Positions 12,026-62,840 of a DNA stretch of 64,000 bases are shown here, piece after piece. Numbering within the stretch: position 1 is the stretch's first letter; every line of letters begins with the position of its first letter. The position numbers and the translations under genes were made by a program. The DNA comes from Styela clava (taxonomy: Eukaryota): NCBI RefSeq assembly GCF_964204865.1, contig NC_135263.1, forward strand, positions 8,680,001-8,744,000, given 5' to 3'. The notes under the pieces were generated by a model. The model made no database searches. It saw only the letters and a list, made by a program, of their open reading frames with translations, and had not been told where the DNA came from.

Positions 12026-15000
12026 ATGGAGGCGAGTAGTTGTCGAAATTCGTCGGTCAGCGTCATGAGTCCAAATTCAAGCGATGGACATTTGTTGACC
12101 AGTCCACATCCAATGTCACTCGCGAGGCCGATGCAACACCACTCTCCTCATTCGACATCGCAACATCGTCTTTCGCTATCAATTCCTCCTCATCCCGGAA
12201 TGTTACAACCAAGTCCAGATGGTTATCTTCAGGGAGGGCATTTGCTACCGCATCAACAAATTTCACCAGGATCTCAAAATGCCGGTGCCGCTCATCATCA
12301 GCCTTTGCAACTAAGTCACTCCCATGATCCGATGCATTCTCACCACGCCATGCAATATCACCAACACGCACAGCATCAACATTTACAACGTTCTCGTTCC
12401 CTACATCCTGTTTCTGCATCTCAACAACTTGCATCTTTGGCTCCTGGATTGGATATGTCATCAAGACCGAATAGCAGAGAAGCTCCGAGCTCATCGCCTC
12501 AAATGCGCTCCCATAATCATGATGAAAATAGTTTAGAGCCTCCCATGGCACATCAGCATCCATCCCCTACTTCAGAAAGGAATCTACATACTTTATCGGA
12601 CACAACAGATGACAGCAATATTAACAATAACAACAGTACTAAACTAAACTCAGAGCAAGATCAAAACACCGACGGAATTGTTAACGCATCCATGAACGGA
12701 TCTGAAACATCAACATCGACTGAGGAAGATGGAAGTGACGGTGGCGCTACTGTAGCAACAAAGAAAGGTGGTACAGCCAATGCAAATCCTGCTCATAGAA
12801 GACCAGAGAAACCACCATATTCCTATATTGCTCTCATCGTAATGGCGATACAAAGCTCAACAACGAAAAAACTTACTCTGAGCGAAATTTATCATTTTCT
12901 ACAAAGTCGATTTGAATTTTTCCGAGGTTCGTATCAAGGTTGGAAAAATTCCGTTAGACATAATTTGTCTCTGAACGAATGTTTTATCAAATTACCAAAG
13001 GGTCTGGGGCGACCAGGTAAAGGACATTTCTGGACTATTGATCCAGCTAGTGAATTTATGTTTGAAGAAGGATCTTTCAGACGCAGACCCCGTGGATTTC
13101 GGCGCAAATGTCAGGCATTGAAGCCATATGGTATTTTCGGCGGTGCACCTGGACTTATGGGACCACAAGGTTATCCTCCACATGAAATGTTTGGTGCTGC
13201 AGCGTCGCTTCAGCATTCAGCAATGCCTCCGCCTCGCCACCAGGCTAATTTGATGGGCTTCGATCCACAAGGAATGAACTTTTTGAATGGGGCCGCCGCT
13301 GCTGCTGCGGCTGCCGCTTCAAACGGTATGTCGAGCCCTACATCCCCCAATCATTCAGTCACACCGAAGTTACCACCAACTCCACATTCCCCAAATGGAG
13401 CCTTGAATGCCCATTACACAACCTGTCCCAACACTGGTGCTTCGCAAATTTCACCATCGGCAGCCGCCAGCATGGCCGCGGCACACAACCACCATTATTC
13501 AGCTTCTATGTTTAACTGGCCGGGCGCAGGAAGTCACGCTGCCGGAGGATACATGCGACATGGACCGCCATCGGCAGGATCTCCAACCGATCATCAATCT
13601 CCCCACCTCATGAACGGCGTTCCATCTGCAGCATCAAGAATGGACTATCATTCGTTGTATGCCTCTGCTCGAGAAAATCATCTTTCATATGAAGGTATGT
13701 TATTATAGTATTACTTTTGCATAGAAATTTCATTTGACAGGAAAAGATAAACTAAAGTATTTTTATCGCATACAAAATATAAACTGGAAAACATTCAAAA
13801 ACCTTACTTGCATTAGAATAAAAATAAACAGCGTAAAAATAATGATGAAATAAGCATGATATACTCCATATTTTCCTATTAGCTCCCAACTGGTTGTTTA
13901 TTCAAACTTGATTCAAATGTCGCATCCATAGCTATCCTACCCCCAATCTCCTAATCCGTTATTGTCTCTTTATTATCATAAATTTTCAAGTGTTTTTAAA
14001 ATGCGCAGGAAATATTAGTAGTCACTTATACTTGACTTGAAGCCTAATCTGCTATTAAGAAAGCCTGCGTGGGTATTTCATCTTCGGAATATTGTCTTCT
14101 GTTTCTTTGTTTTTAGTCGCGAACATCTGGATTTAAATTTAGTTTATTTTTGTTATGCTCATGCACTTATGTTCGTATTTGCCAGTTTGACTTACTTAAA
14201 AACCCAATAATGATTTAATCAATAAAAAGATCACTATGTATGATATTATAATGAGTAAAATGCTGTTAGTTGAAGACGGTATGGTAATAGAAGATATCAA
14301 GATTATTTCAAAATATATTTCGTCGATTAAAGAAATGATTCAGATAACACCGAATTCCTAATAGCATCATAACTAATAATAATATTTTTGATGAAGTTTA
14401 ATTGGTATTGTTCAATTATCGTCAAATTTTATCACTTTTGTCCCGAAAGATGTTGTCGTTCCATTTCATCATAATTTGTATCAGATTGTTAGCTTTTTAA
14501 CCGGACATGATTCACTGCGGTTGAATTTAACAACGGATTCAACTGTCATATTATCAATAGGTTACTTCTAAATCTTCACTTAAATATGACGATTTGATAA
14601 CATAACAGTCAAAATTATTTGTATCAATAAGTGTCTCACTGGGTGATCCTATTAAAATACTACTCTTCTCGTGATAGCCCACTAACCGTTGGCTCATTAT
14701 TTTAAAAAATGAAGCAATTTAAAATTCGTCGAGTTTCAATATTTTTTTAAATTCTCAGTTTGTCACCTTAACCTGTTATTATATAATTTGTCTAAATAAT
14801 TGTTAATCTTTCGCCACAAAAAATTTGTCGTGATATGAGTAATAATCGGACATATGAGTTTTTTCACTTTAAATTTTGTCACGGGCGTGACGTAATTACA
14901 AAGAAATACCTCGAATCATAATGGAACAAATTTGCCTAAACTTTGGGAATTTTGGAAATACCTTAATATTTATTTTTCGTGACTATTAGCCGAGTTTATT

Positions 15001-44676: not shown

Positions 44677-44972
44677 AATAATTGAGTAAGCTGATATATT
44701 CTCTACAAATCACAAAGTCTAGAAATAATTTGGCAATGGTAATTATGATTACATTTCAGAAATATGATTTTCATTTTTGGCTTGAGATTTCGCTTTGAAA
44801 TACGAAGGTAGAAATTTGCAATTTTGAAAGCAGATTGTTCTACAATTTAAATCAAAAATATGAAAGAATCAAAAAACGGCTAAAAGGTGAACATGATAAC
44901 ATATTTACTAATATATCAATCCAATAGTCTAATGAAAAATGATTCCAATAAGAGTATTATTTTATTGTTTTT

Positions 44973-46811
44973 CTATGTTTTTGAATCTTGCAAAATATTT
45001 TGAACATTTGAAAGTATTTTTTCATAATCAACTGATAATCTGGATATTGTATCTTTATCAACAGTACATTCGTCTGGTAACTGTCTACCAGCTTTTCGAA
45101 ATATTTTCTTACAACGAGACACTTCTGTAGGATTAATCAAGCTGTATACAGAACCCTCTTTTCCTGCACGAGATGCCCTTCCAGCTCTGTGTATGTAAGT
45201 TTCTATAAACAATGGAGAATCATACAAAAGCACTAATTCGACATCTTCTGCATCAATGCCACGTGCTACGGCATCAGAACAAACTAAAACACACTCTTTT
45301 TTAGAATTGAAATCATTCATTGTACGTTTTCTCTCTCGTTTGGTTAGGAGAGAAGAAAATTCCAAACATGGAATACTTAATATATTGAACTTTGAATACT
45401 CCTTTATCAAATGATGAAGTCTACGTGTAGACTCCGCAGTTCGAGTAAAACAAAGTGCCTTTTTCACTTTCAGTGTTATCAGTAATCCCATGACAATTAA
45501 AGGCTTCATGTTAGTTTCACATATGACAGTATGTTCATGCAATGTTGGTGGGGTTATATATTGACTAGTTAATGAAACGGACCTATTTTCTGTCGCTGGT
45601 TTAGCAAGAAACAGACGTGGTTGAAATAAATTAAGAGTTTTTAGTCTTTGGGGATCTGTGTTTAATGTTGCAGAAAATAGAAGCTTCTGAACTGATCTTT
45701 TAGGATTGATCAAATCCTGTAGTGTTGCGTTTTCCGCTGTTGATTGCTCAGATTGAGGTAAATGATATCTTAATTTCTGAAGCCAGGACTGTTTAATTAC
45801 ATCCAATATTCGATCTGCTTCATCAATTACCAGAAACCTAAGCTTATTGAGATGAAGTAAATCTGGGACTTCGAGAAAGTGTGCCAATCTACCTGGTGTG
45901 GTAACAATTACATCTGGGAAAATCTCAAACCCAAACTTGGATTTTTTTGAAAGCAAATACTTTTCAGTTTCAATTTGGCTTCCACCCAATAAAATAGACT
46001 TAATATTACTACCCTTGGACAATGTAAGAAACACACCATGCACTTGTTTAGCCAGTTCAATTGTCGGAACAACAACTAAAGCCCTCGTTCCATTAATTGG
46101 TGATTCAAGCAAACAGTTAATAATTGGTATCGCAAATGCCAAAGTCTTTCCACTGCCTGTAGGTGAACATACACAGATATCATTTGGTCTACTGATCATG
46201 AAACATTTGGAATTATAAAGCAAGGCAGGTATGAGGCTTGTTTGAACAGGAAAAAGTTTAAATATCTCCATTTCCTTCAAATTTTTTTGCACCAGTTCAT
46301 GGAAGCAAGTTAAGTCAAAATCCTCTGAATTGTTGATATCAATATCAATCCAATATGGATTCTCTATCCATTCTGGCAACTTGTGGTCAACTTTAAACAT
46401 TTCAAAATTGTAACCACCCTTCGGAGCTTTCAGTCTCATTTTCAATACTTCAAATGGGTCATATTTATTGTTCCCTTCCGTCCCAACTCTGGAAACACTT
46501 TCAACATCTTGATTTTTCTTATAAGGGCTATGTATCAAATCTCTTTTTTCATTATTAACAATTTTTTCAGGAAGTTGATTAGAACTATTTTTTATTTGTT
46601 CAACTTTGACCTTTTTGGTGTCGATATTATCATCAATTTCTTTTGTCGTGGAAAACTCTTTGTCACCAGGAACCAATGTTTCATCCAACAGTCTTTTAGC
46701 AGCCTTCTTCTTTTTTGCACTCTTTTTCAACGACTCCAGAATATCATTTTTATTCGATTCATTCTTAATCAAACTGCTATCCTCGTCTCCATAACGAATT
46801 ATTGGGAACAT
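44973..46811 (-). CDS. DDX51: ATP-dependent RNA helicase DDX51/Dbp6, 612 aa, single coding exon
   Basis: Q motif LFPVQ, RPNDICVCSPTGSGKTLAF, PTIELAKQV, TPGRL, VIDEADR, QKLLFSATL..DPQRL..LNLFQPRLF (DDX51 signature), ARGID, HRAGRASRAG. Probable 5' UTR intron 47426-46835 (ag|gtaagt ... tttttattgtcag|). Confidence 0.92.
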   Translation of the reverse strand: MFPIIRYGDEDSSLIKNESNKNDILESLKKSAKKKKAAKRLLDETLVPGDKEFSTTKEIDDNIDTKKVKVEQIKNSSNQLPEKIVNNEKRDLIHSPYKKNQDVESVSRVGTEGNNKYDPFEVLKMRLKAPKGGYNFEMFKVDHKLPEWIENPYWIDIDINNSEDFDLTCFHELVQKNLKEMEIFKLFPVQTSLIPALLYNSKCFMISRPNDICVCSPTGSGKTLAFAIPIINCLLESPINGTRALVVVPTIELAKQVHGVFLTLSKGSNIKSILLGGSQIETEKYLLSKKSKFGFEIFPDVIVTTPGRLAHFLEVPDLLHLNKLRFLVIDEADRILDVIKQSWLQKLRYHLPQSEQSTAENATLQDLINPKRSVQKLLFSATLNTDPQRLKTLNLFQPRLFLAKPATENRSVSLTSQYITPPTLHEHTVICETNMKPLIVMGLLITLKVKKALCFTRTAESTRRLHHLIKEYSKFNILSIPCLEFSSLLTKRERKRTMNDFNSKKECVLVCSDAVARGIDAEDVELVLLYDSPLFIETYIHRAGRASRAGKEGSVYSLINPTEVSRCKKIFRKAGRQLPDECTVDKDTISRLSVDYEKILSNVQNILQDSKT

Positions 46812-47169
46812 TTTATTTATTTAATCGATCAGTTCTGACAATAAAAAAGCATTGACATAACAAATGAAACAAAATAATAACCACAAAAAAGTTCATACAA
46901 ACATTCCTCAGATTCATCTTGTAAAACTTTTGATAAGGATCGATAAGACCTTGGTTTTGATTTGTTCAAATTTATTCAGAAATCTCGACTTATCAGAAAT
47001 ATTCATATTTGGTATATCTGAAAATCTCGTAATTCTCTACTTTGTAATTTTTTTTGATAAATGAAAATAAAATACATCCCCCAAAAATAAGCTATAGTGT
47101 TACGGTATTTTTCGAAAAAAAATTGAAATAAGATGCTCTCTAGTTTTCGAGAAAACGGGTATATATATA

Positions 47170-47300
47170 TATCTGTATCGGTACCGGCATATTTCATATA
47201 TATAGGCTTACCGGTACCGTATATATATAGCCTACCGGTACGGTACCGTATATATATAGCCTATTGCTGTATTGGTACCGGTACAGTACCGGTATACACA
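47170..47300. repeat. Low-complexity array of TA-delimited CCG/CGG/CCGG/GCC/CAG units with (TA)n runs
   Basis: Contains TACCGGTA, TACGGTA, TACCGTA, TAGCCTA, TACAGTA and a duplicated CGGTACCGTATATATATAGCCTA block. Confidence 0.85.
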
Positions 47301-47429: not shown

Positions 47430-47960
47430 CTGTTTTTTCCACTGAAAACAGCTCTTGTACCTAATTCACCAGTAACAATAACGTGTTTCCCTCTGAATAA
47501 GCAGAATTTCAATGATGACTTGCAAATTCTATTTTAAAACCACGCCTATTTTGAGATCAATACAAATCAATCATTTAAACCGTGATGATTATTGGTTGAT
47601 GTTGTTTCAAATTCAGTTATGCGAGACGAAAATGCGTGGCCAAACTTTATGCGTAAAGCAAGTATATTTCGCTACAGCTAGAACTGTGCAACTGCATGTC
47701 AACAAATTTTCATGGTTTGGTTTTTAAATCCATTTTCTTAGATGCTGCACTGCTATCTTTGTTTGTAGGGGTGTTTATTACAACCGGTCCACAATTTTGT
47801 GCCAAATTACGCATCGTTTTGAGCAACCATAAACAAGATCAAAAAGTGAGCATAGTACCATATTCTTTTTCTGAATTATGATGATATTCAAGATTTGAAA
47901 AATAAGACTGTTTAATCCAGACTATGAATTTATTTTGAACCTGGTTTCTGGACTGTGTAC
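47430..47960. promoter_or_regulatory. Probable bidirectional promoter of DDX51 and CEP95
   Basis: Lies between the outward-facing first donors (minus ag|gtaagt at 47427; plus ag|gtaatc at 47962) and is locally CpG-rich within a CpG-poor block. Confidence 0.5.
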
Positions 47961-48229
47961 AGGTAATCTATGGAATAAAGTTGTTGTTAGTTTTAGGTAA
48001 AGTAAAAATGGATACATAAGGGATAATCTTGATGAGGTTGAATTATACTCAACTTTTTACCCAGTTACAGAGTTACAATTATAATAATCATTTATTTTTA
48101 TCATATGTCTGTATGTAGACTACTGGTGTATTTTCAGATAGGCCTATTTCGTCAAGGACATACCATTGACAGTTTGAGTTGAAGAATGAGATGACATCCA
48201 CCTAGCATTTGATAGGGATTACTCGTACT

Positions 48230-51200
48230 ATGGATGAAGAAAGTGAGACGATTGTTAAAGAAGGAGGTAACTTTAAAATCTATAACTATAAAATTACAAA
48301 GTGGTACCGCATTAACTCTGTAACTTGAGATATTATCTTGATGAAAAGCAACATAATGAAAGCACTGAATCTGAAGCAGCAGGGAAATGGAATGGCATGA
48401 CTTGTGTAACTTTTCCAATTGGTGTCAATTTGTTTATATTTTCAAATTTCAGATGTTGTATCATACGCCAATGAGCTGCTGTCGAAATGCAACATTCAGT
48501 TCATGATTGAAGAATATTCAGAATGCACAAGTGATTTGTTTCTTGCATTGTATCATGCAATTTTGGGAGACTTTCCACCAGGTTATTACTCATTTGACAC
48601 CTATAATGCAGCTTATGAAAAAGTTCATTTTTTTATTATTCCAGGCATATGAAGCTTTCATTTGAATGATTACTACTAATATTGCGAATAAAGTTTATTC
48701 AATTTTATCACCCATCAAGATGTTTTTCAATTTTATGAATTCCCACAGTCATATGATTTTGAAAATATCGCGGTATATTTTGGAACATTTAAGCAATAGT
48801 ATCATCTTTGTTAATATGGATGATTTTTTATGTACGTAAGAACAAACCTGGCTGATACTTAAAGATGTACTTTTGCTATATAGCCTATTTTTCTTCAATC
48901 TCATTCTAAATAATTAAAGTTATTACCATTGAAAACAGTCTTCATGATTGTTGTCAAATTTTGTTTGGATAATTTCTTCGGTTTTTTGAGAAAATTTTGT
49001 GATAGGTAGCTTATTATATATATATTTTTGTATTTTATAGGAACTCTTGTTGATTGTAGCTCAAAAGAAGCACAAATTCACAATATTAAATGCATAGTTG
49101 AAACATTGTCAGAAGATTATTTAAAAGTAGATTTGTCTCATATACAACCTGAAGATATAGTAAATTGTGATCTATTGTCTGTTTACAACTTGATTGAAAT
49201 TCTCGACGGTCTACTGGATTATTTGCTGGAAAAGATTGGAATGGATAGTGACAGTGGGGGTATGAATTTTAAGTTTTTTGTACGATATTAGCTCAAAAAA
49301 ATTTTTGGATCAGAATCTAAGCAATTTTCATTTGTTATTTCCTCTGAACAAGTCTTTGATCAAGACAGAGCTGATCATTGCTGATAATTAATGGTCCTCC
49401 TGATGATGATGGGTTATGTATTGATCTCTGATCAGCCAGAACTCAACTTTTTGATCCTGGATTTGATAAACCAGTTTAAATGTCGATCTAAACAAGAAAA
49501 ATTCCATTTTTTTAATAAATTCTAACATGGTTAGCTTAGCACAGGTTTATGAGCTAAGATATTATTGAAAAGCTGTGACCTGTGAGATGGTAAATTTGAT
49601 CTCAGAAAACGAGAATATCTCATCTTGTATTTCCTTATTTTATGAAATGTTAACCATTTTTGATTTGAACAATTTGACCAAACAGATGAAGGTGACATAG
49701 ATTCAGATCAACTGAGTGATAATGCAAAACTGATGGCTATGCAAACTATTCAAAAAGAAATGGAAAAATTGAATGTTTCACAAGGGTGAGTATGAGGGGA
49801 TCATTGATACTGTTATGAAATAATTCTGTACAATAACCTTGTCCTAATAAGATAAACATATTTCTTCGATTGGTGCATTTTTTGTGAAAAATGTAAGAAT
49901 ATACAATTTTTTTGTATTATGTATTTCAGGGATCCCACATTTTCAAGTACAGCGGAGTTAATTGCCCTTGGTAAATCAGCTACTGATGAAGACAAATTAT
50001 CCCAAAGCGACAAATTTGAACAACTTGAACCTCAACTGAGTCGCACTCCTGAACTAAGTGATGATATTTCTGATGGAGAACTTTCCGATCATACATTGCG
50101 TGCAACCACTGATTTATCTCCGAGGAACGACACTCTAAAACATGCTTTACCAAGTATTTCTCCGGTTCCATCAGATATGGACAGCTATAAATCACTTCCT
50201 AAAGAATTAAACGGGTTTTCATCAACTTTATCTCACCTTAAAAATGGCTTAAACTCAACAGACCAAAATGGAAGTAGAGATTTTGTGCCTTCGATGAGAC
50301 CTCCCTCTCCTCCTGGTTCTGGTATAGTTATTAGTGATAGTGGAAGTAGTATGGATAGTGAAAGGCAAAGACAAGCACTTGATGTTGAATTGGATGACAA
50401 ACATACGTCATTTTTACTCAAGGTAAAATTCGAGGTGACTTGTACATTTGAACCCACGTAAATTTGAACCCATACATTTGCACCCGTATATCCGTGGGAT
50501 CAATTTATATGAGGGTGCTAAAATCCATGAGTTAGGGTTAGTATGGGTTCGAATATCCGTAAAAAAAATTTTCATAGATGCAATAGTATGCAGGTGCAAT
50601 TGTCGTTGGTTCAAATGTACGTGGGTTCAAATGTGATGGCACCAAAATTTGAGAGTTGTTAAAATTTTAATAATTCAATAAATCAGAATTATTCGTGTTC
50701 TGTTATCCTAGTCAACTTTTTTCTCTTGTCAATTTTTCCCTAATTGCACAGAAAAAGGAACACTCAAGATTTAATCAGGAATCTTCAGGATCAGAATCCA
50801 TTGATGTTGCTGATGGTGGTGGAAGAGGAAAACTAGATGAAGATGATGATTCATCACAGCGAAATATAGATTCTCGGTAATTTTTATGTTGCAGATATAT
50901 TACACATATATGAAGACGTACAATAAGTTTTAGTTCGATTTAATATAGTCTAGTCTGGTGAATTTATTATCTTGCATTAAACAGTCAATGCAAATCAATT
51001 CAGGAAAAAAATTTCTGAATGGATTATATACATATTAAAAACTTCTTAATTTATGACAGTGCAGAATAATAAACAAAAATATGATTCTACCCTCAGGCCT
51101 ACAATGCTTCCACCTCGAAAAGAAAAGGATTGGCAAGCAATGTTGGATAATTTACAGAAAACTGTTGAAGAATCGAAGAAAATAAGGCAAGAATATTTTT

Positions 51201-54200
51201 CATCTTCAAGACTCAGACCAGAATTGACAGCTTCAAGTGATGATCTTCATACAAGGTAAACTGAATACATTCATAGCATTTTTTTTTATCTGTTATATAA
51301 ACACTCCATTCTTGAGTAATTGATTTTTTTTCATTCTCAACCAAGTTATCGTATTAGCAATCTCATTTGGTAACTGTGTTCGAATATATAAAATAATCTT
51401 TTGAATTTATAGTTTATATGACAGATTTTTTCTTATTTTAGTCTTGCGGATGACACAGCAACTACAGAAGAATCTTTGGATGGTAAAACATTAATTTTTA
51501 TAATGGCTTTTTAGAATCCTTGATGCGCATTCATCATAAATATATGATACAAATGTATGATAATATTGATAGAAAATTTACTTGTCGGGAAGACAACTAA
51601 CTGATTTTATTAACATTTTGGAAAATTATGCCATTTTTATCCTGGTAATTCATTTTATGCAGATTCACTTGTGCCCAGAAGAGGCAGAAGTAGACGTAAA
51701 AATGTTCGATTTGAAGATACAGTTTCTACTAAAACTGCAAAAGAACTAAAACAATTCAGAGACTTACTTGAAAAGGAGAAGACGTTACAAAAAGAGAAAA
51801 ACAAGGCAAGTAACAAACAAAAAAATATAAATTTATATTTAAAAAAATAAACTTTTTTTGGTTCTTTCAGATTCTAGCAAGAAGTTATCAAGATCATCTG
51901 GATGAAGTTCAAGATTCTGAAAAAGAAAAACTGAATCCGATGAGAAGAAAAGTTTCTGACACTGAAAAGAAGGTAGTAATGATTGTTGTGAAAATATATG
52001 TACAAGTTAGCAAACTCTAGTCTGGTTTTAGTACTTTGTATAAATTATACTATTACTTATAGGCCTTATGGCTATATTTGTACTAAAAAGGTAAAAGAAA
52101 CAATTCAACAACAAAAACAAGGCAAAAGAAGAGTGCCGCGGAAATCAATGAGGAAGAGAAATAATATGACTGATGCAGCCAAGTTGAAAAGTTGGCTGAG
52201 CCCGGAAAGCAAGTTAACTCTTTGTTCAGCTGGAATATCAAATACGTTTTAAATTGAAAAAAAAATTCAGAGAATAAATTACTCCAAATTTCGTAGATTC
52301 AGATAATTTTTCAATGTAGCATTTTAATTAAACACCTCTCTTGTTTGTCTGTCCAATACTGAGTTTTACACCCTAGATGGGGTGGTCGGTCAAGTATGAA
52401 CCTAAGATTTTTATCCTGTGATATTAGCATAGTTAGATCCAAGACTCCACTTCATATCTCATCACTAACTTAGCATGCAAAATATTCAAGTTTACTCTGG
52501 ACTTCTGTGATAGCATTTTTTTCAAATAATATTACAATCTCTGTTTTTAAAATGTAAATAACTAAACAATTTGCAAACTTACACGATTCCTGTAACAGTC
52601 GGTACTCAGTCTCTCACATGTTTGTACATTTTTTTAATTCTGAATATCTTTATTTTTTTTTCAGAATGCAAAGCTACGACCAAGCGATCTGCTCCCAAAC
52701 GACTTCCATATACCGCAGCTACTGCACCACTCAGTGCTGGCATTGAGTCGATAAATGAATATGATCTTCTTCCCAAATTACTCGAAGAATTTCCACAGCT
52801 TGAATTACCTGCAGCAACTCTCAATGATATGTGGCACAAACAATTTCGACAGATTGAGCATCTTACAAAAGCTTCATTTGATCATAAAAACAAGAAGCGT
52901 CAGGGTGAAATGCAGGTAATAATCAGTATGACGGTTAAACAAGGTTTTGCAATTTTCCAAAATACACTCGTAATATTATCGCAAATGAGTGGGATTTCTC
53001 TTATTCTCTAATCTAACTATTCCCACTTTGCAGTGTGAATTTGTATAAATTGCATAAATGCTAGAGCTGAAAAAATGAATTTTACCTAACACTAGTGTCT
53101 GTACCATAATACCAATTATGCATTATTAAATATCAAATAGGGGCATGGCTGCATGCACTATGCAGAGAAAAAACATCCAGAAAAATAAGAACTATATCAT
53201 AAGCAGAAAACTAACTCAACTGTCCAATTGCATTGAGTGACGCAAACAACATCTTCACACAACTTTATTTTTTCAGTTACATGAAGCCCATCTCAAGCAT
53301 GAGTTACTGACCAGCATAATGCAAAAAGATCACGAACACACCAGACATCTCAGAGATGTGAAAGAACGAGCTGCAAAACAAAAAGAAGCTCAAAGAATTT
53401 TACGAGACAGGAGATTACAGACAGCTCGAATCAGGAAATATTATAAGTAAGAGTAGTCAATGGTGTGCAAAATTCAGTTTAGCATTAATTTTCACTATTT
53501 GGTAATGACAAAAACATTGAGTTTTAGTTAGCAATGCTATTATGCTGAGTAGAATCATGTTTAATTCTTTATTCGAAGTCATTTCAAATATATTCCGCTT
53601 TTGTATGAATAAAAATGCTTGAATTATTTCAACTTCAAATAGGAATATCTCTCATTTAAATTTCACTCTGATTTCAGAGATTATCATTTGCAAATGAAAG
53701 GTAGGATGATGAAGCGGAGAACCAAGGAAGAAAAGGTAAACATGAAACTCCATTCAGTTTTGTTTTTGTTTTATTCAGTTTCAAAACCACCATGAGATTG
53801 TATATCATAGATTAAGTTTAATTTACTACTAATTGATAAGGGTATTTTAACATGATTGCCTTGACTGGTTTGTTTTTTGTAGCCTTAGCAATTTCCATAG
53901 TGAAGTGGGGATGTACCTAACGGGTTCTTTGAGAGCAAGCTCAAATATAACTAGAGCTGCGTGCAGCTTTAACAGGCTTCCCGCGTAAAAAAAAATTTGC
54001 ATTTTATTGCTAGCTGAGAACTTCTGCACATTTGAGGTGAATTTCAAGTTTGTAGGACCAATTTGAAAAAATAATAATAATAAATAAATAATAATAATAA
54101 TAAAACACAGGAATACAATAGGTTCCCTGCTGACAAGCAGCGGGAAGCCTAATTAAACGAGAAAGATTTCGATGCATGAGAAACCACTCGTCTTTGATTA

Positions 54201-55959
54201 ATAAATTAGAAACCCAAAATAGAAAAACCTGGCGCCATACAGGCAGAAACAAAATCTAGGTATAGGATCCTCTTGGATTCGAATCCTCTGGTTTCGATAT
54301 TCTGAATTGCCCATCCTTAGATGTACGACAACTTTGTCATATCAAGATGCTATGATTATGGTTTTGTTGCGATTTTACAGCGAGGTAGCTTGATTTTTGA
54401 ATTTGAAATAATTGAAGTCCTAATTCTAAAATAATATGTTTCTTTTTATGAAATCCGGATGCTCCAATCTTTGATAATGAAGCTTCAATTGTTTTTTTTG
54501 TTCAGATATTCAAGCGACTTTTTGAAGATGGTTTGTCAATCCAGCGAGCAAGATTGAGAGAATTGCGGAAATATGCAAGAGATAAAAGAGAAGAACAACA
54601 AAAACGACAACTTGATGAAATACAAAGCCTTGAAAATTATTACAAAGATCAGTTTAATATTTTGGCAGACACTCTTGCAAATGAACGAAATGATTTAAAA
54701 GTTCGAGATGCAGCTCAAATGAAGGTGATTGTAAATTTTCAATTCAAATGAGGCGCAGTTCTTACCACTTCATGGCAGCACCTGCCACGAACGAACCGCG
54801 GCGTCTCTTATCATGGTCTTGCGGCACCTTCAGACGCCACAAAATACGTAAAACTGCACTTGATTCAAATGCAATACAATAATATAGATCAGGGTGGTCC
54901 AAACTGCGGCCCGCGGGACTTTTTTGAATCCCGATGTCGTGATTAATGTTTGTTGAAATCAGGGAATTTCAATGTTGTATCTATAAACGTCAAAACGGCG
55001 CCAATATGGGAATGACGACTTGTGACCGGTACCGGCAAAATAAACTTCGAACCTTAAGCTCGCGCCAAGTAACTCCTCATTTGGAGAGACGTCTTGTGCC
55101 TTTATTTTAGTAAAAACACTCCTCTAGTTTCGAGCTGTGGCTATGTTGACAGCAGTGCTGAACCGTGGAGCTGACTTATCGCCTCGCGATCCAGATCTTT
55201 TTTCAGCTGAGTCTCGAGTCCCAACTTAAACGGACGGACGAAACTATAACAATTCATCATACAATCGGTGTGAAAAAAGGTGACCTAGGAAAACTGGGAG
55301 GAAACGCATTTCCTTGCCTATAACAACCTTAAACCACAGTGTCTGGTGTGTTTTCAAGTAATATCTGTCACAAAAGAATATAATTTTAAGACATTACAAA
55401 ACCAAACATGATAAAATAAATATACCAAAAATACGTTATTTCTCGGCAAGCAATTTTAAAATAACTAAAGGCTTCTATATCCTCCTCAAAAATCTGATTA
55501 GAACAGTAAAACCCCATTCTTAAATTTATTTAAAGTGAGTAAATTTGCGTTGTTTTGATCATTTTTGGGTTTTCTCCGACTGCGGCCCGCGAAACATTTT
55601 CAAAAGATTTTGCGGCCCGCCAACCTTGGACCACCCTGATATAGATGCCTCATATTATTAAAATGTGTGTTCTCGCCTCGCTCATCATGCGACTGACATA
55701 TTAATGAGCGTTTATTGATTCAATAAATATAACAGTAATATAGTTAGTAAATAACGATCATGACAGTCATAAATTTTGCATCTCACAGTTGATTCGTCAA
55801 ATGAAACGTGGACTGAGGCAGAAGATGGAAAAAGAAATTGGTGATTTACAAGATATGATTGCAAGAGATGATGAAGATGCATATTTTCGTGAAATTGAGG
55901 CAGACAGATTAAGAAGACAACTGCAGCTTGCAACATATCATGCTAAGTTTCAAGATTAA
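48230..55959 (+). CDS. CEP95: Centrosomal protein of 95 kDa (CCDC45), 16 coding exons
   Basis: Exons 48230-48266, 48453-48581, 49041-49259, 49686-49785, 49930-50422, 50752-50876, 51097-51255, 51442-51482, 51663-51805, 51871-51972, 52091-52208 (boundaries less certain), 52665-52915, 53277-53446, 53678-53735, 54506-54724, 55789-55959. N-terminus ANELLSKCNI...LYHAILG...DYLKVDLSHI...NLIEILDGLLDYL and C-terminus LENYYKDQF...DDEDAYFREIEADRLRRQLQLA match CEP95. AATAAA at about 56505. Confidence 0.9.
50434..50643. mobile_element. 210 bp MITE with internally repeated terminal inverted repeats
   Basis: GGTGACTTGTACATTTGAACCCACGTAAATTTGAACC ... GGTTCAAATGTACGTGGGTTCAAATGTGATGGCACC, about 15 bp subunits, internal GTTAGGGTTAG, near-perfect 9 bp TSD AAAATTCGA/AAAATTTGA. 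Confidence 0.85.
53949..54153 (-). mobile_element. Helentron-associated non-autonomous element (HINE/DINE-1-like)
   Basis: Read on the minus strand: subterminal inverted repeat AGGCTTCCCGC, (TTA)n microsatellite, complementary GCGGGAAGCCT, terminal hairpin AGCTGC-AC-GCAGCT and CTAGTT end; no TSD. Confidence 0.75.
54890..55638 (+). mobile_element. 749 bp hAT (Buster/Charlie/SPIN-like) deletion derivative in the last CEP95 intron
   Basis: Perfect 13 bp TIR CAGGGTGGTCCAA/TTGGACCACCCTG, perfect 8 bp TSD ATATAGAT, subterminal TGCGGCCCGC repeats, and a frameshifted zinc-finger relic WEETHFLAYNNLKPQCLVCFQVISVTKEYNF/HYKTKH at about 55295-55410. Confidence 0.92.
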
Positions 55960-57272
55960 CAATATGAATTACGAATATTACTATAATGCAAATAAGACTG
56001 TGAATACTTTTATGACCAAATTTTATATATTGTGTTAAAATTGTGAGAGAGGCACTGTGTTTGTGTAATCATAGTGTCATAATTTGATAGTCAACATCCC
56101 TAGTATTTCAGACTCTTGTTAGTTTAACTTTATGAATATGTAACTTATAAGCAAATAGAGCGATCTTATTTTATTGCAAGTTTTTTTATTTGACCAATTT
56201 CACGAGTTTGGACGCGCTAGTTTTCGAAGTCACTTGACTTTTAAAATTGTAACCAAAGCTTGTAGAGTTCAATATTTTTCATTGTGTGTTTAACACTTTT
56301 CTTGTTGAGTAGTGTGGAAATTTATCACTCATTATTTATATGATGTTATGTATTTCATTAGTTTCTCCTGAAGTTTTGTACTGAAATTTACCATTCAAGT
56401 AGTATGTGTATATTTGATAGTGTAGAGAACTGTATAAATCATTGAGTAGTTTGCAAAACTTTGAATGACATATAACAAAGAGTTTTAATATTTAAACTTA
56501 TTCTAATAAATATGAGACATTTGTATGTTTTTAATTCTGTAGTTTCGCCTCTGAAAAGGGTATGTTCGTTAGGAAAAAGGTCTCTCGTGGTGATGTATAT
56601 TTATTCTTTTAGTCTTGAAATGTCAGCGCCCCGTCGTATTTGACTTGCCATTCATAGAATAATGCTATTCGTATTTTTGACTTCTGTAGAAATTCAAGAC
56701 ACTCAGCCGCCGACTATACGTGGTATAGAATGATGAAATTCCAGCTGCAATTTGTGCTGGGAGTTGCGACGGTGTAAACTGTAAATATGCTCATTTTTTT
56801 TTAATTACAGGCGTTTGGTTCAAATTCATCGCTCCGCTATGAGCGGTAGTGAGCAACAATCTGTGCGAGCTTTCTCGAGTGTCGTTAACGCCGGGGACCC
56901 TACCGGTTCTCTTATATGTCGACTAAACTGATAATTTATTTGGAGAAACCAAAAATGTCCTGTTCATGAATACGAATTGGCAATGTATTTAGATTTGACA
57001 AAAAAGCGTCATTTGCCGCGTTATTGGGCAGTGAGTAAATTAATATCCTCGTCTTTCCCGTTCAGTGTCAGATTATCATCCAGTCAATGCTGCAATGCAG
57101 GTTCTTGTAATTATTGGAAGGTAGGATCGCTCCACTTTTCTGCTTTTGCAGTGTTGATAACGTTATGCTTAATATAGTTTACAAACTAAATAACAAAGGA
57201 AAAAATTTGTTTAGTCTGTGTTATCTCTAACATGAAAGCATGCCTGTCTCATGTCTGCCTGTTGAAAATAGG

Positions 57273-59089
57273 ATTTACATATTTATTCGTGGGAGAGGAA
57301 AGCTGATAAGACGGCTTAATCCTGTAATCATATGGTGAACCACGGCCTCTCGTCCGGTTACCAGTCCAGGTCGGGTATGGGATTAGTTAGCCAGTTAGGC
57401 TACGGTACCGTAAAAGCGCCTAACTTCGGACAGTTCCTAACTTCGGACAAAATTTTTGAACGGCCATATCTTGGCTAAAACGCGCTGTATATTGCTAATT
57501 TTAATTATTATAGGTTGCGCTGTTATATCTACATCTATTCTCATCTTTTTTAATGTTGAATAATTATTTTTTTGGTAAAAAAACGGAAATTTTGCCGAAA
57601 ACTGACTGCCCGGCATTCAACGGCGCAGAGCGTCGCTACTACTGAAGCTATCATCGTCAAAATACCATCATTCGGTAGAGGGCGACAACAATGTATATAA
57701 TTCATTTGAGTGATCGCAAGATGTCGTACGAGATTTAAATAAAACCTAAAATTCTGAATTATAAATTCCGTAAGAATATTAAGATTTCACGCAGCGTCAA
57801 AAATTACGTCAACCTCACGTAGATTATTTTTCGCTCACTTCCGACACGACGTCACACTGCGTCGCGGAAATGAATTTTGACGCCAGACACAACGGAGCCA
57901 ATATGACAAATTCCGTTAAGATAAAGACGGCGTTCCAATGTAATATTTTTGTATTTTGTTCGGTCATGTATGAATATATGCCAAAATTACATTAATGAAA
58001 ATACATGTCACATTTAATCGATGACGTTAAAAATCGAATATATAAAACTATGATAATTCCAACGTCCATATGGCACAGTGCACTGACTTAACCATTATTT
58101 TATGATTAGTAGTCGAAATGACAGTTATTGAATACGGCCTGGGTGAATTTTATTCGAAATTAAAAATAAATTTAATCTCCAACAAATAAACGGGACCTAC
58201 ATGTTTACAAGATTAAGTTGAATTTTAAATTAAACTTTACAATCGGATTTACCGTGTGTTTGATATAAATTATCATTTATAAAGATAACCGCGCAGAATA
58301 AAAAAAAGCTATCCGTTGAGAATATTAATACTTCAAAGACTTCGATAGAAGCCCGTTAAAATACTTCATTGTGGATTGAAACGGTTTGCATCAGATATAT
58401 TTACGTATGCATTTCCTGATTAAAATGACTAACGTGTTATTATACTCATCTGAAGTATCGAAAATGACGAACGAAAGATGTAAACATAGGACGACGGAAG
58501 TTTCAAATAATGCATTTTCGTCGTGACGTCAATGTTACGTTACGACGACGATCGAGCGTCTTATCTTCACGCAACGACGAGATTACGTCATCCGCATCGG
58601 AAGCCTCTTTCTCTCTGTGCGTCGCGGTTACGCAGTGAAGAAAATGATTGTCCGAAGTTAGGGCAGTGAAGGATAACGGTCATATGGCAAGAAATATCGA
58701 TTATTTCAATAGTAAAAATAGTCCAATTGAACCGAAATTTGCAGGGAATGTAAATTACCGCACGAATGTTTTACCGATCAATTTTGGCACCGTTTGGACA
58801 ATAAATGGCCGAGTTATTGACGAAAATATAGTAATTTTGTCCGAAGTTAGGCGCTTTTACGGTATTTGTTTTCGGAAGCATGGACTTGATGGTGGATTGG
58901 TGGAGGCAGCCGTAACCAACCAGCGGTTACGTAAACCATCCTACGGTGGGGAGGAGTCCAGCAATCCTCTAGCACATGATCATCCTCGCATGGGATTCGA
59001 ACCCACGAAGGGTTATCAGAAATGCGGTGGCGATCGTATTCCTACTGTCCTAAACGCTTAGCACTGTAGCATGATGCGCCGCACCGTCC
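57273..59089 (-). mobile_element. tRNA-derived SINE split by a nested DNA transposon (SINE parts about 59089-58863 and 57397-57273)
   Basis: Minus-strand head GGACGGTGCGGCGCA...GCTAAGCG (A-box-like) and B box GGGTTCGAATCCC (58992-59004); the body resumes on the far side of the insertion and ends in an AATAAATATGTAAAT tail. Confidence 0.75.
57408..58862. mobile_element. 1455 bp non-autonomous Tc1/mariner-superfamily element
   Basis: Perfect 25 bp TIR CCGTAAAAGCGCCTAACTTCGGACA/TGTCCGAAGTTAGGCGCTTTTACGG with TA on both sides; inner copies of CCTAACTTCGGACA at about 57436 and 58649; no transposase ORF. Confidence 0.92.
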
Positions 59090-59230: not shown

Positions 59231-59340
59231 TACCGGTACGGTACCGGTACAAGCATATTCTGATATTGACTGATTGGTACGGTAAACCGGAATACGATTC
59301 GAATTACTAAACAACCACTGCAGTTAGTCTATATACCGGT
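59231..59340. repeat. Second TACCGGTA/TACGGTA array
   Basis: TACCGGTACGGTACCGGTA at 59231-59249, GGTACGGTA at 59276, TATACCGGT at 59332. Confidence 0.75.
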
Positions 59341-60479: not shown

Positions 60480-61049
60480 GTCTAAATAACAAAAAAAAAC
60501 TATTCTATCTGAAATCTAATAAAAATATGTCAAGATAACTTGAATGATTTATGTGGATTTCTGTTAATTTTCATGTACACCAGAACACAATATTACGAGG
60601 ACTAGGTTGTGTAAAATAATGGAAGATGCTGACTTGAGACTACTCTGAAAATAAATAAGTCTGTAAGGAAGGGGGCATCATAGAGGAGAGTCATCATAAT
60701 AAATTCAAGCATAATTACTACAGCATGATATAATATGCTTTCCTTGTGTTTTGATATATCCATTCTTTATGGTAGCATATGCTGCAGTCCCTGCTAGCAA
60801 TAGTATGGTTCGTCCCTATTTTCACTACTCATACTTTGAAAAATAGGAAAAATGAGAAGTTTTTGTAAATTCATTTTCATTAAAAGAAAAAAGTTTGCAA
60901 ATTTTTTGAGGTGTGGGAATTAAGTTGTTCTCTTTGTTTTTTTCCAGATATTTATTTGTTTATGAAGATACTTGTTCTGTCAAATTAGTTTTTATCTTAA
61001 GTTTACATAAGAGCTGTAGTACAAGAGTTTTCCCGTTTGGAAGTACATT

Positions 61050-62840
61050 ATGAATTTGTATATAGTCATAACATTTGTCCATTTAATCATCTCTCAAACA
61101 ACTCTTGCTTCAAAACTTGAAGTAGAATCACCTGGTAGCTCTGAAGCAGCCAAAAATCAGCTCCAAAAAATATATGACCAAACGAAGCACATGCGTTATG
61201 GCCAATGTTGGATGCAAGCGCTTAGTGTTCTGCAGGCAGGGTGCAGACAACTGACCGATGAGGTACAACGTAGGATTGCTTATGCCTTTGCTCGATGTCA
61301 TTTGCAAGCTTCTGGTCGAGATATACCAGAATGTCCTAATGAAAAACCAATTTCAGCGTGCACAGATTCAGAAGCTATACCTGATATTGCATTCAACGCT
61401 TATACTGAATTTTTTACACATACGCAGCAGATTTGTTTTCATCTTCAAAATCAAGCATGGCACGAAGCAACTGAAAACACTATTTCACGTCTTGCTGATA
61501 ATTCTGCAGAGGTTGCTACACAGTTGGAAAACAGTGCAGATGTAGCAAAAGAAATGGTCGCTCAACAAAGTAAATCTTTAGAAAATCAAGAAATTTTGTT
61601 ACAAAATGAAGAAAAATTGAAGAATTCGATGGAAAAATCAGTTTTGGATGTGCAAAGATCTCATGCTGAGACCAAGGCTATCATAAGTGAACAACGGGCT
61701 CTTTTTAGCGAAGTTTTTGACAGAGTCGCAGTGTTACAAAAAACTGTCCTTGGTGAATTTTCTAGCATTTACACATTCGGATTCTACGTTGGTTCGACAT
61801 TGATGGCATACATTCTTACATCTACAACCAGAACTAGCAGTGCCAGAGTTTGGTTGTTCCTTATTCTTATGATGAATGCTGCAGCAGAACGTATGATTAC
61901 TTATTACTATGTAAATCCTATTGATGGTAATACAAGTTTTGCTAGTGGATCACTCAGTGCTATGGTACCTGAATTGATTTATGAACAAACGTGGCTTTGT
62001 CGACAAGTATTCTCTGGATTTGCTCTTCTAGTTCTACTCCTTTCTGTTTGTCGATATAAGGATTACAATCGCATCAACAACTCGCTTTTAAATGAAATTA
62101 AACAACAAAATTTAGAATTGCAGAATTATATCAAAGAAAATATCCATGATGTGCACATAATTGGTAATTCAACTCAATCTGCTTCAATCAATCTTATCAA
62201 GACTGAGGAAATTCACGATGAAAGTATTGGGAAAAAAATGCTTCTGGATAAACATCAATCTGATATTAGATCAGTTGCGACATTGTCTCATCGTCACGAA
62301 CCAAATGCAACCATGTCCGATGCAAATACGACCATTTGTCCATCTAATTTGACGAAAATGACCATAAACGTCACAGATTCGGAAGGAGAAGAGAGTGACT
62401 GCACTTTTCGTCAGTCGGAGGTCACAAATGATGTATCAGATGTATCATCTGTCACAAGTTTCATGTCAGTTAGTACAAGAAGTACTCGATCTCGTTCTGT
62501 AAGCGCTCGCATCAATTCGTCCAGACGTTCATCCACTCCGCTGAGAGATATTATTATTACGGAAAACCAATCTAAAACAAGTATGAAACGCTCCAGAAGG
62601 AAGAGCAGCATTATTTCAACGTTAAATGACAGCGTTTCAAATGTAAATCCTCCATCTTCTAGCGTTGTAGTTGGTGGTTATAGTTTACGACGGCGACCCG
62701 AATCTCCAAGAGTTAACCATTCCATTTTACGAACTGAAACAGTTGAAGAATTCACAAGCTATGTCTTGCATGATTTAGCTGAAAGATCTGCTGATAAAAG
62801 AATGCAAATAACGCAGCATCTAGCTTTAAAGAAATCATAA
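61050..62840 (+). CDS. Brambleberry/GEX1/Kar5-family nuclear membrane fusion protein, 596 aa, single coding exon
   Basis: Signal peptide; Cys-rich domain CWMQALSVLQAGCRQLTDEVQRRIAYAFARCHLQASGR..P.C...C...AFNAYTEFFTHTQQICFHLQ; coiled coil; three hydrophobic segments (about aa 240-335); Ser/Arg-rich tail. Upstream acceptor tttccag| at 60947. Confidence 0.85.
   Translation: MNLYIVITFVHLIISQTTLASKLEVESPGSSEAAKNQLQKIYDQTKHMRYGQCWMQALSVLQAGCRQLTDEVQRRIAYAFARCHLQASGRDIPECPNEKPISACTDSEAIPDIAFNAYTEFFTHTQQICFHLQNQAWHEATENTISRLADNSAEVATQLENSADVAKEMVAQQSKSLENQEILLQNEEKLKNSMEKSVLDVQRSHAETKAIISEQRALFSEVFDRVAVLQKTVLGEFSSIYTFGFYVGSTLMAYILTSTTRTSSARVWLFLILMMNAAAERMITYYYVNPIDGNTSFASGSLSAMVPELIYEQTWLCRQVFSGFALLVLLLSVCRYKDYNRINNSLLNEIKQQNLELQNYIKENIHDVHIIGNSTQSASINLIKTEEIHDESIGKKMLLDKHQSDIRSVATLSHRHEPNATMSDANTTICPSNLTKMTINVTDSEGEESDCTFRQSEVTNDVSDVSSVTSFMSVSTRSTRSRSVSARINSSRRSSTPLRDIIITENQSKTSMKRSRRKSSIISTLNDSVSNVNPPSSSVVVGGYSLRRRPESPRVNHSILRTETVEEFTSYVLHDLAERSADKRMQITQHLALKKS

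Follow-up and report, generated by a model that had tools for sequence, protein, structure and literature searches.

How does a stretch of 141 bp between two divergent genes come to be written in short words, each bounded by TA? The array that raises this question (Table 1) lies in the window, by which we mean the whole 64,000-nucleotide stretch of the Styela clava genome analysed here. The original prediction read the array as stacked excision footprints of Tc1/mariner transposons in open germ-line chromatin, with every event adding a new TA target. The three checks suggested with it were carried out, and their outcomes did not refute it. Our results lead to a modified form of this reading, which we consider very probable: the array is composed of units inserted at TA, most likely excision scars of pogo transposons, and is likely to grow since insertions favour the TAs of older scars, while tandem duplication has added length.

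Counting confirmed that the array is built largely of TA-x-TA units. When its sequence was split at TA, nine canonical units were obtained, covering 62 of the 141 bases, or 96 if TA runs are counted too, whereas 2000 dinucleotide shuffles of the array gave a mean of 0.94 units and a maximum of 5. Degenerate units (TCTG, TCGG, GGCT and TTGG) and four (TA)n runs are also present. Within a genome sample of 1.264 Mb drawn from five chromosomes, the array is the top 130-bp window for unit density, with nine units compared with seven in the runner-up. All of the cores named in the prediction (CCG, CGG, CCGG, GCC and CAG) were found, but the standing of CAG as a separate type is uncertain, because this unit may be a CGG altered by CpG decay or a true 3-base scar; CAG/CTG as a TA-x-TA core stands at 1.27x. 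TRF reported a 24-bp period of 2.0–2.3 copies at 47196–47254, and hence some units of the array are copies of one another.

The position of the array beside two divergent 5′ ends was likewise upheld, with transcript ends taken as the extents of RNA-type contigs from runs that carry no RNA record. The contig of the DDX51-like gene (run X5) extends to 47048, so that the 5′ end of this gene is there or beyond, and the contig of the opposite gene (run X13) begins at 47680. These two ends place the array inside a gap that measures about 630 bp at most. The opposite gene was labelled CEP95 in the original prediction; its protein gave DUF5745 as its only Pfam match. The array starts at the terminal TA of a pogo-like element end, and the DDX51 contig is collinear into this element end (47002–47048), so the 5′ UTR of DDX51 may contain transposon sequence.

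Several other features of the window were recorded. Uninterrupted frames of about 600 codons at 44973–46820 (−) and 61020–62840 (+) stand amid intron-rich neighbours; the latter had no Pfam match and presumably resembles Brambleberry. A long Pro/Gln/His-rich coding segment was predicted by our codon model at 12146–13696 (+). An intron of the CEP95-labelled gene contains a small element of very high copy number, which has inverted repeats and, inside it, sub-repeats of 16 bp (50443–50634), and an intron of this gene at 52208–52665 has GC..AG ends.

Table 1. Features of the array, its surroundings and candidate source elements (window positions, or locus names for elements elsewhere)
Feature	Position	Strand	Remarks
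TA-x-TA unit array	47160..47300	.	CCGG x4, CCG x2, CGG, GCC x2, CAG, degenerate units, TA runs; second allele 62 bp shorter
CCGG units in array	starts 47209, 47233, 47276, 47287		
CCG units in array	starts 47215, 47244		
CGG unit in array	start 47239		
GCC units in array	starts 47228, 47257		
CAG unit in array	start 47282		
Tandemly duplicated block, 24–29 bp, within array	47196..47263	.	missing in second allele
DDX51-like DEAD-box gene	44911..47048	-	one long frame; extent of RNA-type contig
Right end of high-copy non-autonomous pogo-like element, CC..GG tips	47002..47159	.	1686 candidates, 83–87% identity
Single de novo TA-CGG-TA unit within pogo-like element end	47101..47107	.	plain TA in homologous copies
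Spliced gene labelled CEP95 in the original prediction	47680..56553	+	first exon 47680–47845; Pfam DUF5745
GGC + CGG units stacked at E1's target TA	57396..57407	.	host-repeat copies have one plain TA
E1, young non-autonomous pogo-type element, 1455 bp	57408..58862	.	TA both sides; 25-bp perfect inverted ends CCG...CGG
Second, smaller stack of CCGG/CGG units	59231..59284	.	
TA-flanked DDE_1 elements with CC..GG tips	L187, L189-191, L204, L217, L227		
TA-flanked DDE_1 elements with GG..CC tips	L206, L209, L218-220, L223, L225, L228		

The units of the array belong to a class of words that is abundant throughout the genome. Under an order-2 Markov model of the 1.264-Mb sample, the top TA-x-TA words were CCGG (12.8x), GGCC (3.9x), CCG/CGG (2.5x) and GCC/GGC (1.7x), and around CCGG strong enrichment was seen for TA flanks alone. 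Whole-genome counts (377 Mb) were 30,656 for TACCGGTA compared with 4,861 for its reversed control, and 9,691 for TAGGCCTA compared with 2,702, although other repeats contain some of the words and so inflate their counts (at 10 of 17 small loci). One such repeat of 1.5–2.6 kb (L281-L283) has inverted ends of about 430 bp whose arms hold TAGGCCTA words, which raises the count of this word. Units also cluster: 60 of 466 in the sample lay within 7 bp of another, about 2 being expected, and neighbouring units were mostly dissimilar.

Which transposons have tips that could supply these cores? The genome contains 126 matches to DDE_1 (pogo), two weak matches to DDE_3, of which one falls on a DDE_1 locus, and three to mariner (Transposase_1). 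Tc1 and mariner proper were therefore rejected as sources, and the words predicted from them are not enriched: CATG and CGA/CAA-specific words showed no enrichment in the sample counts. Thus, a TA-targeting element with matching tips was foreseen correctly, but it belongs to pogo, which is treated as a separate superfamily in PMC7386202, where placement in families such as Passer or Fot-like goes by DD35D spacing and phylogeny. The pogo elements of this genome have a DDE_1 transposase, short inverted ends and a TA duplication, and intact frames of 403–658 codons occur among them. The cores of the units agree with the tips of these resident families, CC..GG in some and, with a weaker link, GG..CC in others. 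By tip combination, only 2+2 and 1+2 bases were clearly enriched (CCGG 14.5x and CCG 2.6x; GGCC 4.4x and GCC 1.8x), with no enrichment of CCC, GCCC or CATG, which favours retention of at most two bases per tip. A 3-base overhang for all units was dropped for the GG class after these counts.

To account for the GCC, GGC and GGCC cores, another family with GG..CC tips is required. A GG..CC unit abutted 0 of 20 GG-tip ends, and so it is the word spectrum that connects these cores with this family. Other candidates for GGC tips were discarded. TA-targeting families with such tips were not found; repeats starting with TAGGC were hAT-like, with an 8-bp duplication in one full copy; Harbingers begin with AGG after TWA; and the other matches to the GGC-tip pattern were mostly one repeat with the word inside it. 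Elements of the hAT-like kind in blocks C5 and C18, which have 8-bp duplications and begin with TAGGG or TAGGC, mimic TA-targeting GGC-tipped elements. Two further observations concern the pogo elements themselves. Six equal-scoring transposase matches with a 2,937-bp period at G000:C6:21824814-21839924 form a tandem array, and the family to which they belong seems to be active. Moreover, L227 (L227:2010-5430) itself sits inside a unit stack on both sides; it has an intact 447-codon DDE_1 frame, and its ends, 91% identical to those of E1, suggest that it is likely the autonomous partner of E1.

Units of this class arise by insertion. Indels were polarised in repeat copies over 2.0 Mb, with at least two copies lacking the insertion and no fewer than four such copies for each one that shared it. 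Among the 32 insertions of five bases, 14 were non-duplicated CCG, CGG, GCC or GGC units at TA, 5 were tandem duplications and 13 were of other kinds; of 22 six-base insertions, 5 were non-duplicated CCGG or GGCC units at TA. Insertions outside these unit classes thus numbered 18/32 and 17/22, and several rows have two lacking copies. Random insertion would give such units in 0.055% (five-base) and 0.008% (six-base) of cases. Among insertions of TA-x-TA form, 14/19 and 5/8 were units, compared with 3.2% and 1.1% of TA-x-TA windows, and a stricter first pass over 1.48 Mb gave units in 6 of 8 events, one being CTG. None of the 14 five-base unit insertions was a tandem duplication of adjacent sequence. 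The same process is seen about 60 bp to the left of the array, where the CGG-TA at 47101 is lacking in 27 homologous copies and shared by none. A TA becomes TA-x-TA without duplication of its neighbours, and the expected gains of 5–6 bp at TA sites were thereby observed.

Young transposon copies re-use such units as targets. E1, which begins with CCG and ends with CGG as had been noticed, is present in at least 40 copies at 96–100% identity, and its family has about 64 exact-ended copies genome-wide. TA flanks were found on both sides of 27 of 30 fetched young copies; L023 and L028 have AA or TG duplications in place of TA. The target TA was within a unit at 12 of 27 young insertion sites, whereas this applies to 899 of 108,147 TAs (0.83%), a difference of about 50-fold. 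C directly followed the target TA in 33 of 54 half-sites (background 17%), and full units made up 11 of 18 CC-starting half-sites (background 6%). Of 127 exact ends in the whole genome, 15 lie directly beside a CCG or CGG unit; because 11 of these 15 come from the 30 fetched copies, the rate of re-use is lower in the other ends (4 of about 75). At E1's own site in the window, one ancestral TA has given way to a GGC unit, a CGG unit and, after these, the complete element: five host-repeat copies of the same subfamily have a plain TA, and the two units are present in 0 of 33 other homologues. A second mixed two-unit insertion was found in block C4. The states empty, occupied and scarred by the same element were not observed together at any one site, the E1 site showing empty versus two units plus E1.

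Two explanations of this re-use have to be compared. Pogo scars may act as landing pads, the transposase preferring TA sites that have its own tip sequence beside them, such that every exit raises the appeal of the site; we hold this tentatively, as a serious possibility. Alternatively, the units would be footprints, but their stacking would come from a regional hot spot or from immediate local re-insertion, with no feedback through sequence, which we consider rather unlikely. Unit density is raised 3–20x up to 800 bp around young insertion sites, and 23 of 27 young sites have another unit 10–400 bp away, compared with 20% in the background. Since the density is raised also far from these sites, a regional effect exists apart from adjacency. 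However, adjacency (100x within 10 bp) is far above the regional level, and the adjacent units are of the CC..GG type in 15 of 15 cases, although GG..CC accounts for 30% of background units. Local re-insertion of an element into its own scar would also yield both the adjacency and the CC..GG bias.

Natural alleles of the array add to this picture. Run X1 comes from an individual other than that of the assembly, as judged from homozygous DDX51 differences. One of its contigs (depth 35) matches the window across the array, and a second (depth 33) swaps 101 bases for 39; the short allele is known from this one contig of one run. Runs X9 and X14, the latter for a sister species, gave no sequence over the array, and the Hi-C reads of run X15 had a depth below 1x on unique sequence. 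Reading by hand showed in the short allele an extra GCC-TA at a TA that is anchored on both sides, with no adjacent template, and an extra CGG-TA that is a tandem duplicate, for which slippage is equally possible. In the right part the alignment is ambiguous, and the window allele may have gained a CAG-TA there. The haplotypes thus differ by whole units and not by slippage only.

Slippage with template switching, with either a chance palindromic seed or the end of the adjacent element as its starting point, could in principle generate a compound microsatellite of this appearance. The 24-bp tandem block, the TA runs, the duplicated CGG-TA of the second allele and the fact that an element end TA-CCG-TA is already a unit all accord with such an origin. 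However, isolated TAs gained non-duplicated units, mixed GGC + CGG stacks exist, neighbours are mostly unlike one another, and 10 of the 15 units adjoining element ends are inverted, an orientation that could not come from slippage of the end. Slippage is largely refuted as the source of the units, and very unlikely in this role; it remains as a secondary process, and slippage-type copying holds for the 24-bp block alone. Of the predicted self-extending scar, insertion origin and re-entry are therefore borne out, with the qualification that tandem duplication also contributed to length.

Enrichment near transcription starts had also been predicted. Gene models were home-made; the codon model behind them had the sample as its training set and was checked against the RNA exons of the window alone, and the array's own gap was excluded. 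Unit density in divergent relative to convergent gaps was 2.04, 1.99 and 1.57 at the three thresholds used (p 0.003, 0.007 and 0.04 by permutation), whereas control words gave 0.6–0.9; short introns were poorest in units. Within 1.5 kb of flanking exons, enrichment was 1.2–1.7x and not significant. The promoter-side bias is thus real but modest, about twofold. The position of young insertions relative to genes said little, a predicted exon lying within 1.5 kb at just 9 of 29 loci. The idea that methylation causes the promoter excess found no support: CpG-free GG..CC units share the trend (1.4–2.2x), and none of the decay products was significant. The idea that units add CpGs near promoters holds locally, the array having 9 CpGs where 3.9 are expected, but excess units supply only about 1% of the CpGs in the sample.

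The position of the array between two 5′ ends and the excess of units in divergent gaps would also suit a selected cluster of transcription-factor sites in a bidirectional promoter. A factor with a Grainyhead/CP2-like ACCGGT core would be one example. Furthermore, TACCGGTA is a high-confidence promoter motif in Phytophthora according to the accessible text of PMC3597505. We judge this reading highly unlikely. Strict conservation as protein-binding sites was not seen, as the two alleles of run X1 differ by 62 bp and in unit order; the same words appear de novo inside repeats; and the strong flank preference around CCGG is for TA only. Later co-option of the array as factor sites may have occurred.

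According to the pogo account, four steps would build the array. First, an element enters a TA, which becomes duplicated in the process. Upon excision, probably no more than two terminal bases of each tip remain and are joined by end-joining, CC..GG tips giving CCGG, CCG and CGG, and GG..CC tips giving GGCC, GGC and GCC, as the match of cores to tips suggests; for the CCG family a 3-base overhang would fit equally well. The scar then turns one TA into two, in the context (C after, G before) found at targets of the CC..GG family, which may itself be what attracts new copies, and insertions, which are drawn over several hundred bases, would probably be so through germ-line accessibility. Finally, slippage or unequal exchange would have copied the 24-bp block, and point mutation, likely including CpG decay, would have produced the degenerate units. 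Excision as the cause, the length of the overhang and the role of accessibility are what we infer. The account would need no function of the array, and none was shown. Repair independent of transposons might instead add these short cores at TA breaks, in keeping with the fact that no excision was seen directly and that units of the GG..CC class do not adjoin the ends from which they are supposed to derive. Nevertheless, resident families supply in their tips all that the cores contain, the TA duplication is that of transposition, and the same TAs are occupied by intact elements. We consider such repair very unlikely.

Our results can help to see how much cut-and-paste transposition goes uncounted. 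Such transposons are usually counted by surviving copies; about 26,000 excess TACCGGTA words compared with about 64 exact-ended young copies mean that the traffic recorded by scars would greatly exceed what is annotated. Moreover, re-entry into scars offers a route other than slippage to length-polymorphic promoter arrays, and natural alleles suit expression tests. In motif searches, such scars can also be taken for transcription-factor sites. If scars do act as landing pads, new and polymorphic arrays of simple repeats would arise in promoters by a process that feeds itself. The scars would then also map across the genome, in tens of thousands of fossil marks, which DNA has been accessible in the germ line, and they would be where the TA-bounded palindromes listed as promoter motifs of other eukaryotes really come from.

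The chemistry of footprints is already known; the scars described here would be of this known kind, but accumulated in bulk and stacked as the same sites are used again. Stacked or self-extending footprint arrays were not found described in the literature covered, in which subscription journals are thinly represented. The closest system is Passer, a pogo element whose ends begin with TA-CCG-TA, which leaves footprints of 0–4 bp and favours 5′ ends of genes and TSS regions (PMC9976928). Ends beginning TA-CCG, short footprints and a bias to gene 5′ ends are shared with our system, whereas the accessible part of that report concerns single events in transfected human cells and does not report mass accumulation, scar re-entry or stacked arrays. 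Footprints of Sleeping Beauty, Tc1 and Tc3 consist of a duplicated TA with terminal bases between (bioRxiv 10.1101/659086, accessible part), and there too one family yields several footprint lengths via end-joining. However, these elements have CA..TG tips, stacking is not described in that part of the source, and transposases of the Tc1 type are almost absent in this genome. In Phytophthora, the promoter motifs TACATGTA (PMC3520976) and TACCGGTA (PMC3597505) are TA-bounded palindromes abundant upstream of genes. As far as the accessible portions of these papers go, a footprint origin was considered for TACATGTA and rejected (PMC3520976), and the motifs are read as transcription-factor sites, whereas in the present genome the word arises by insertion. 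Like a compound microsatellite, the array has short units, is polymorphic in length and has been expanded partly by duplication. Unlike one, it is made of units imported from transposon tips rather than copied from their neighbours.
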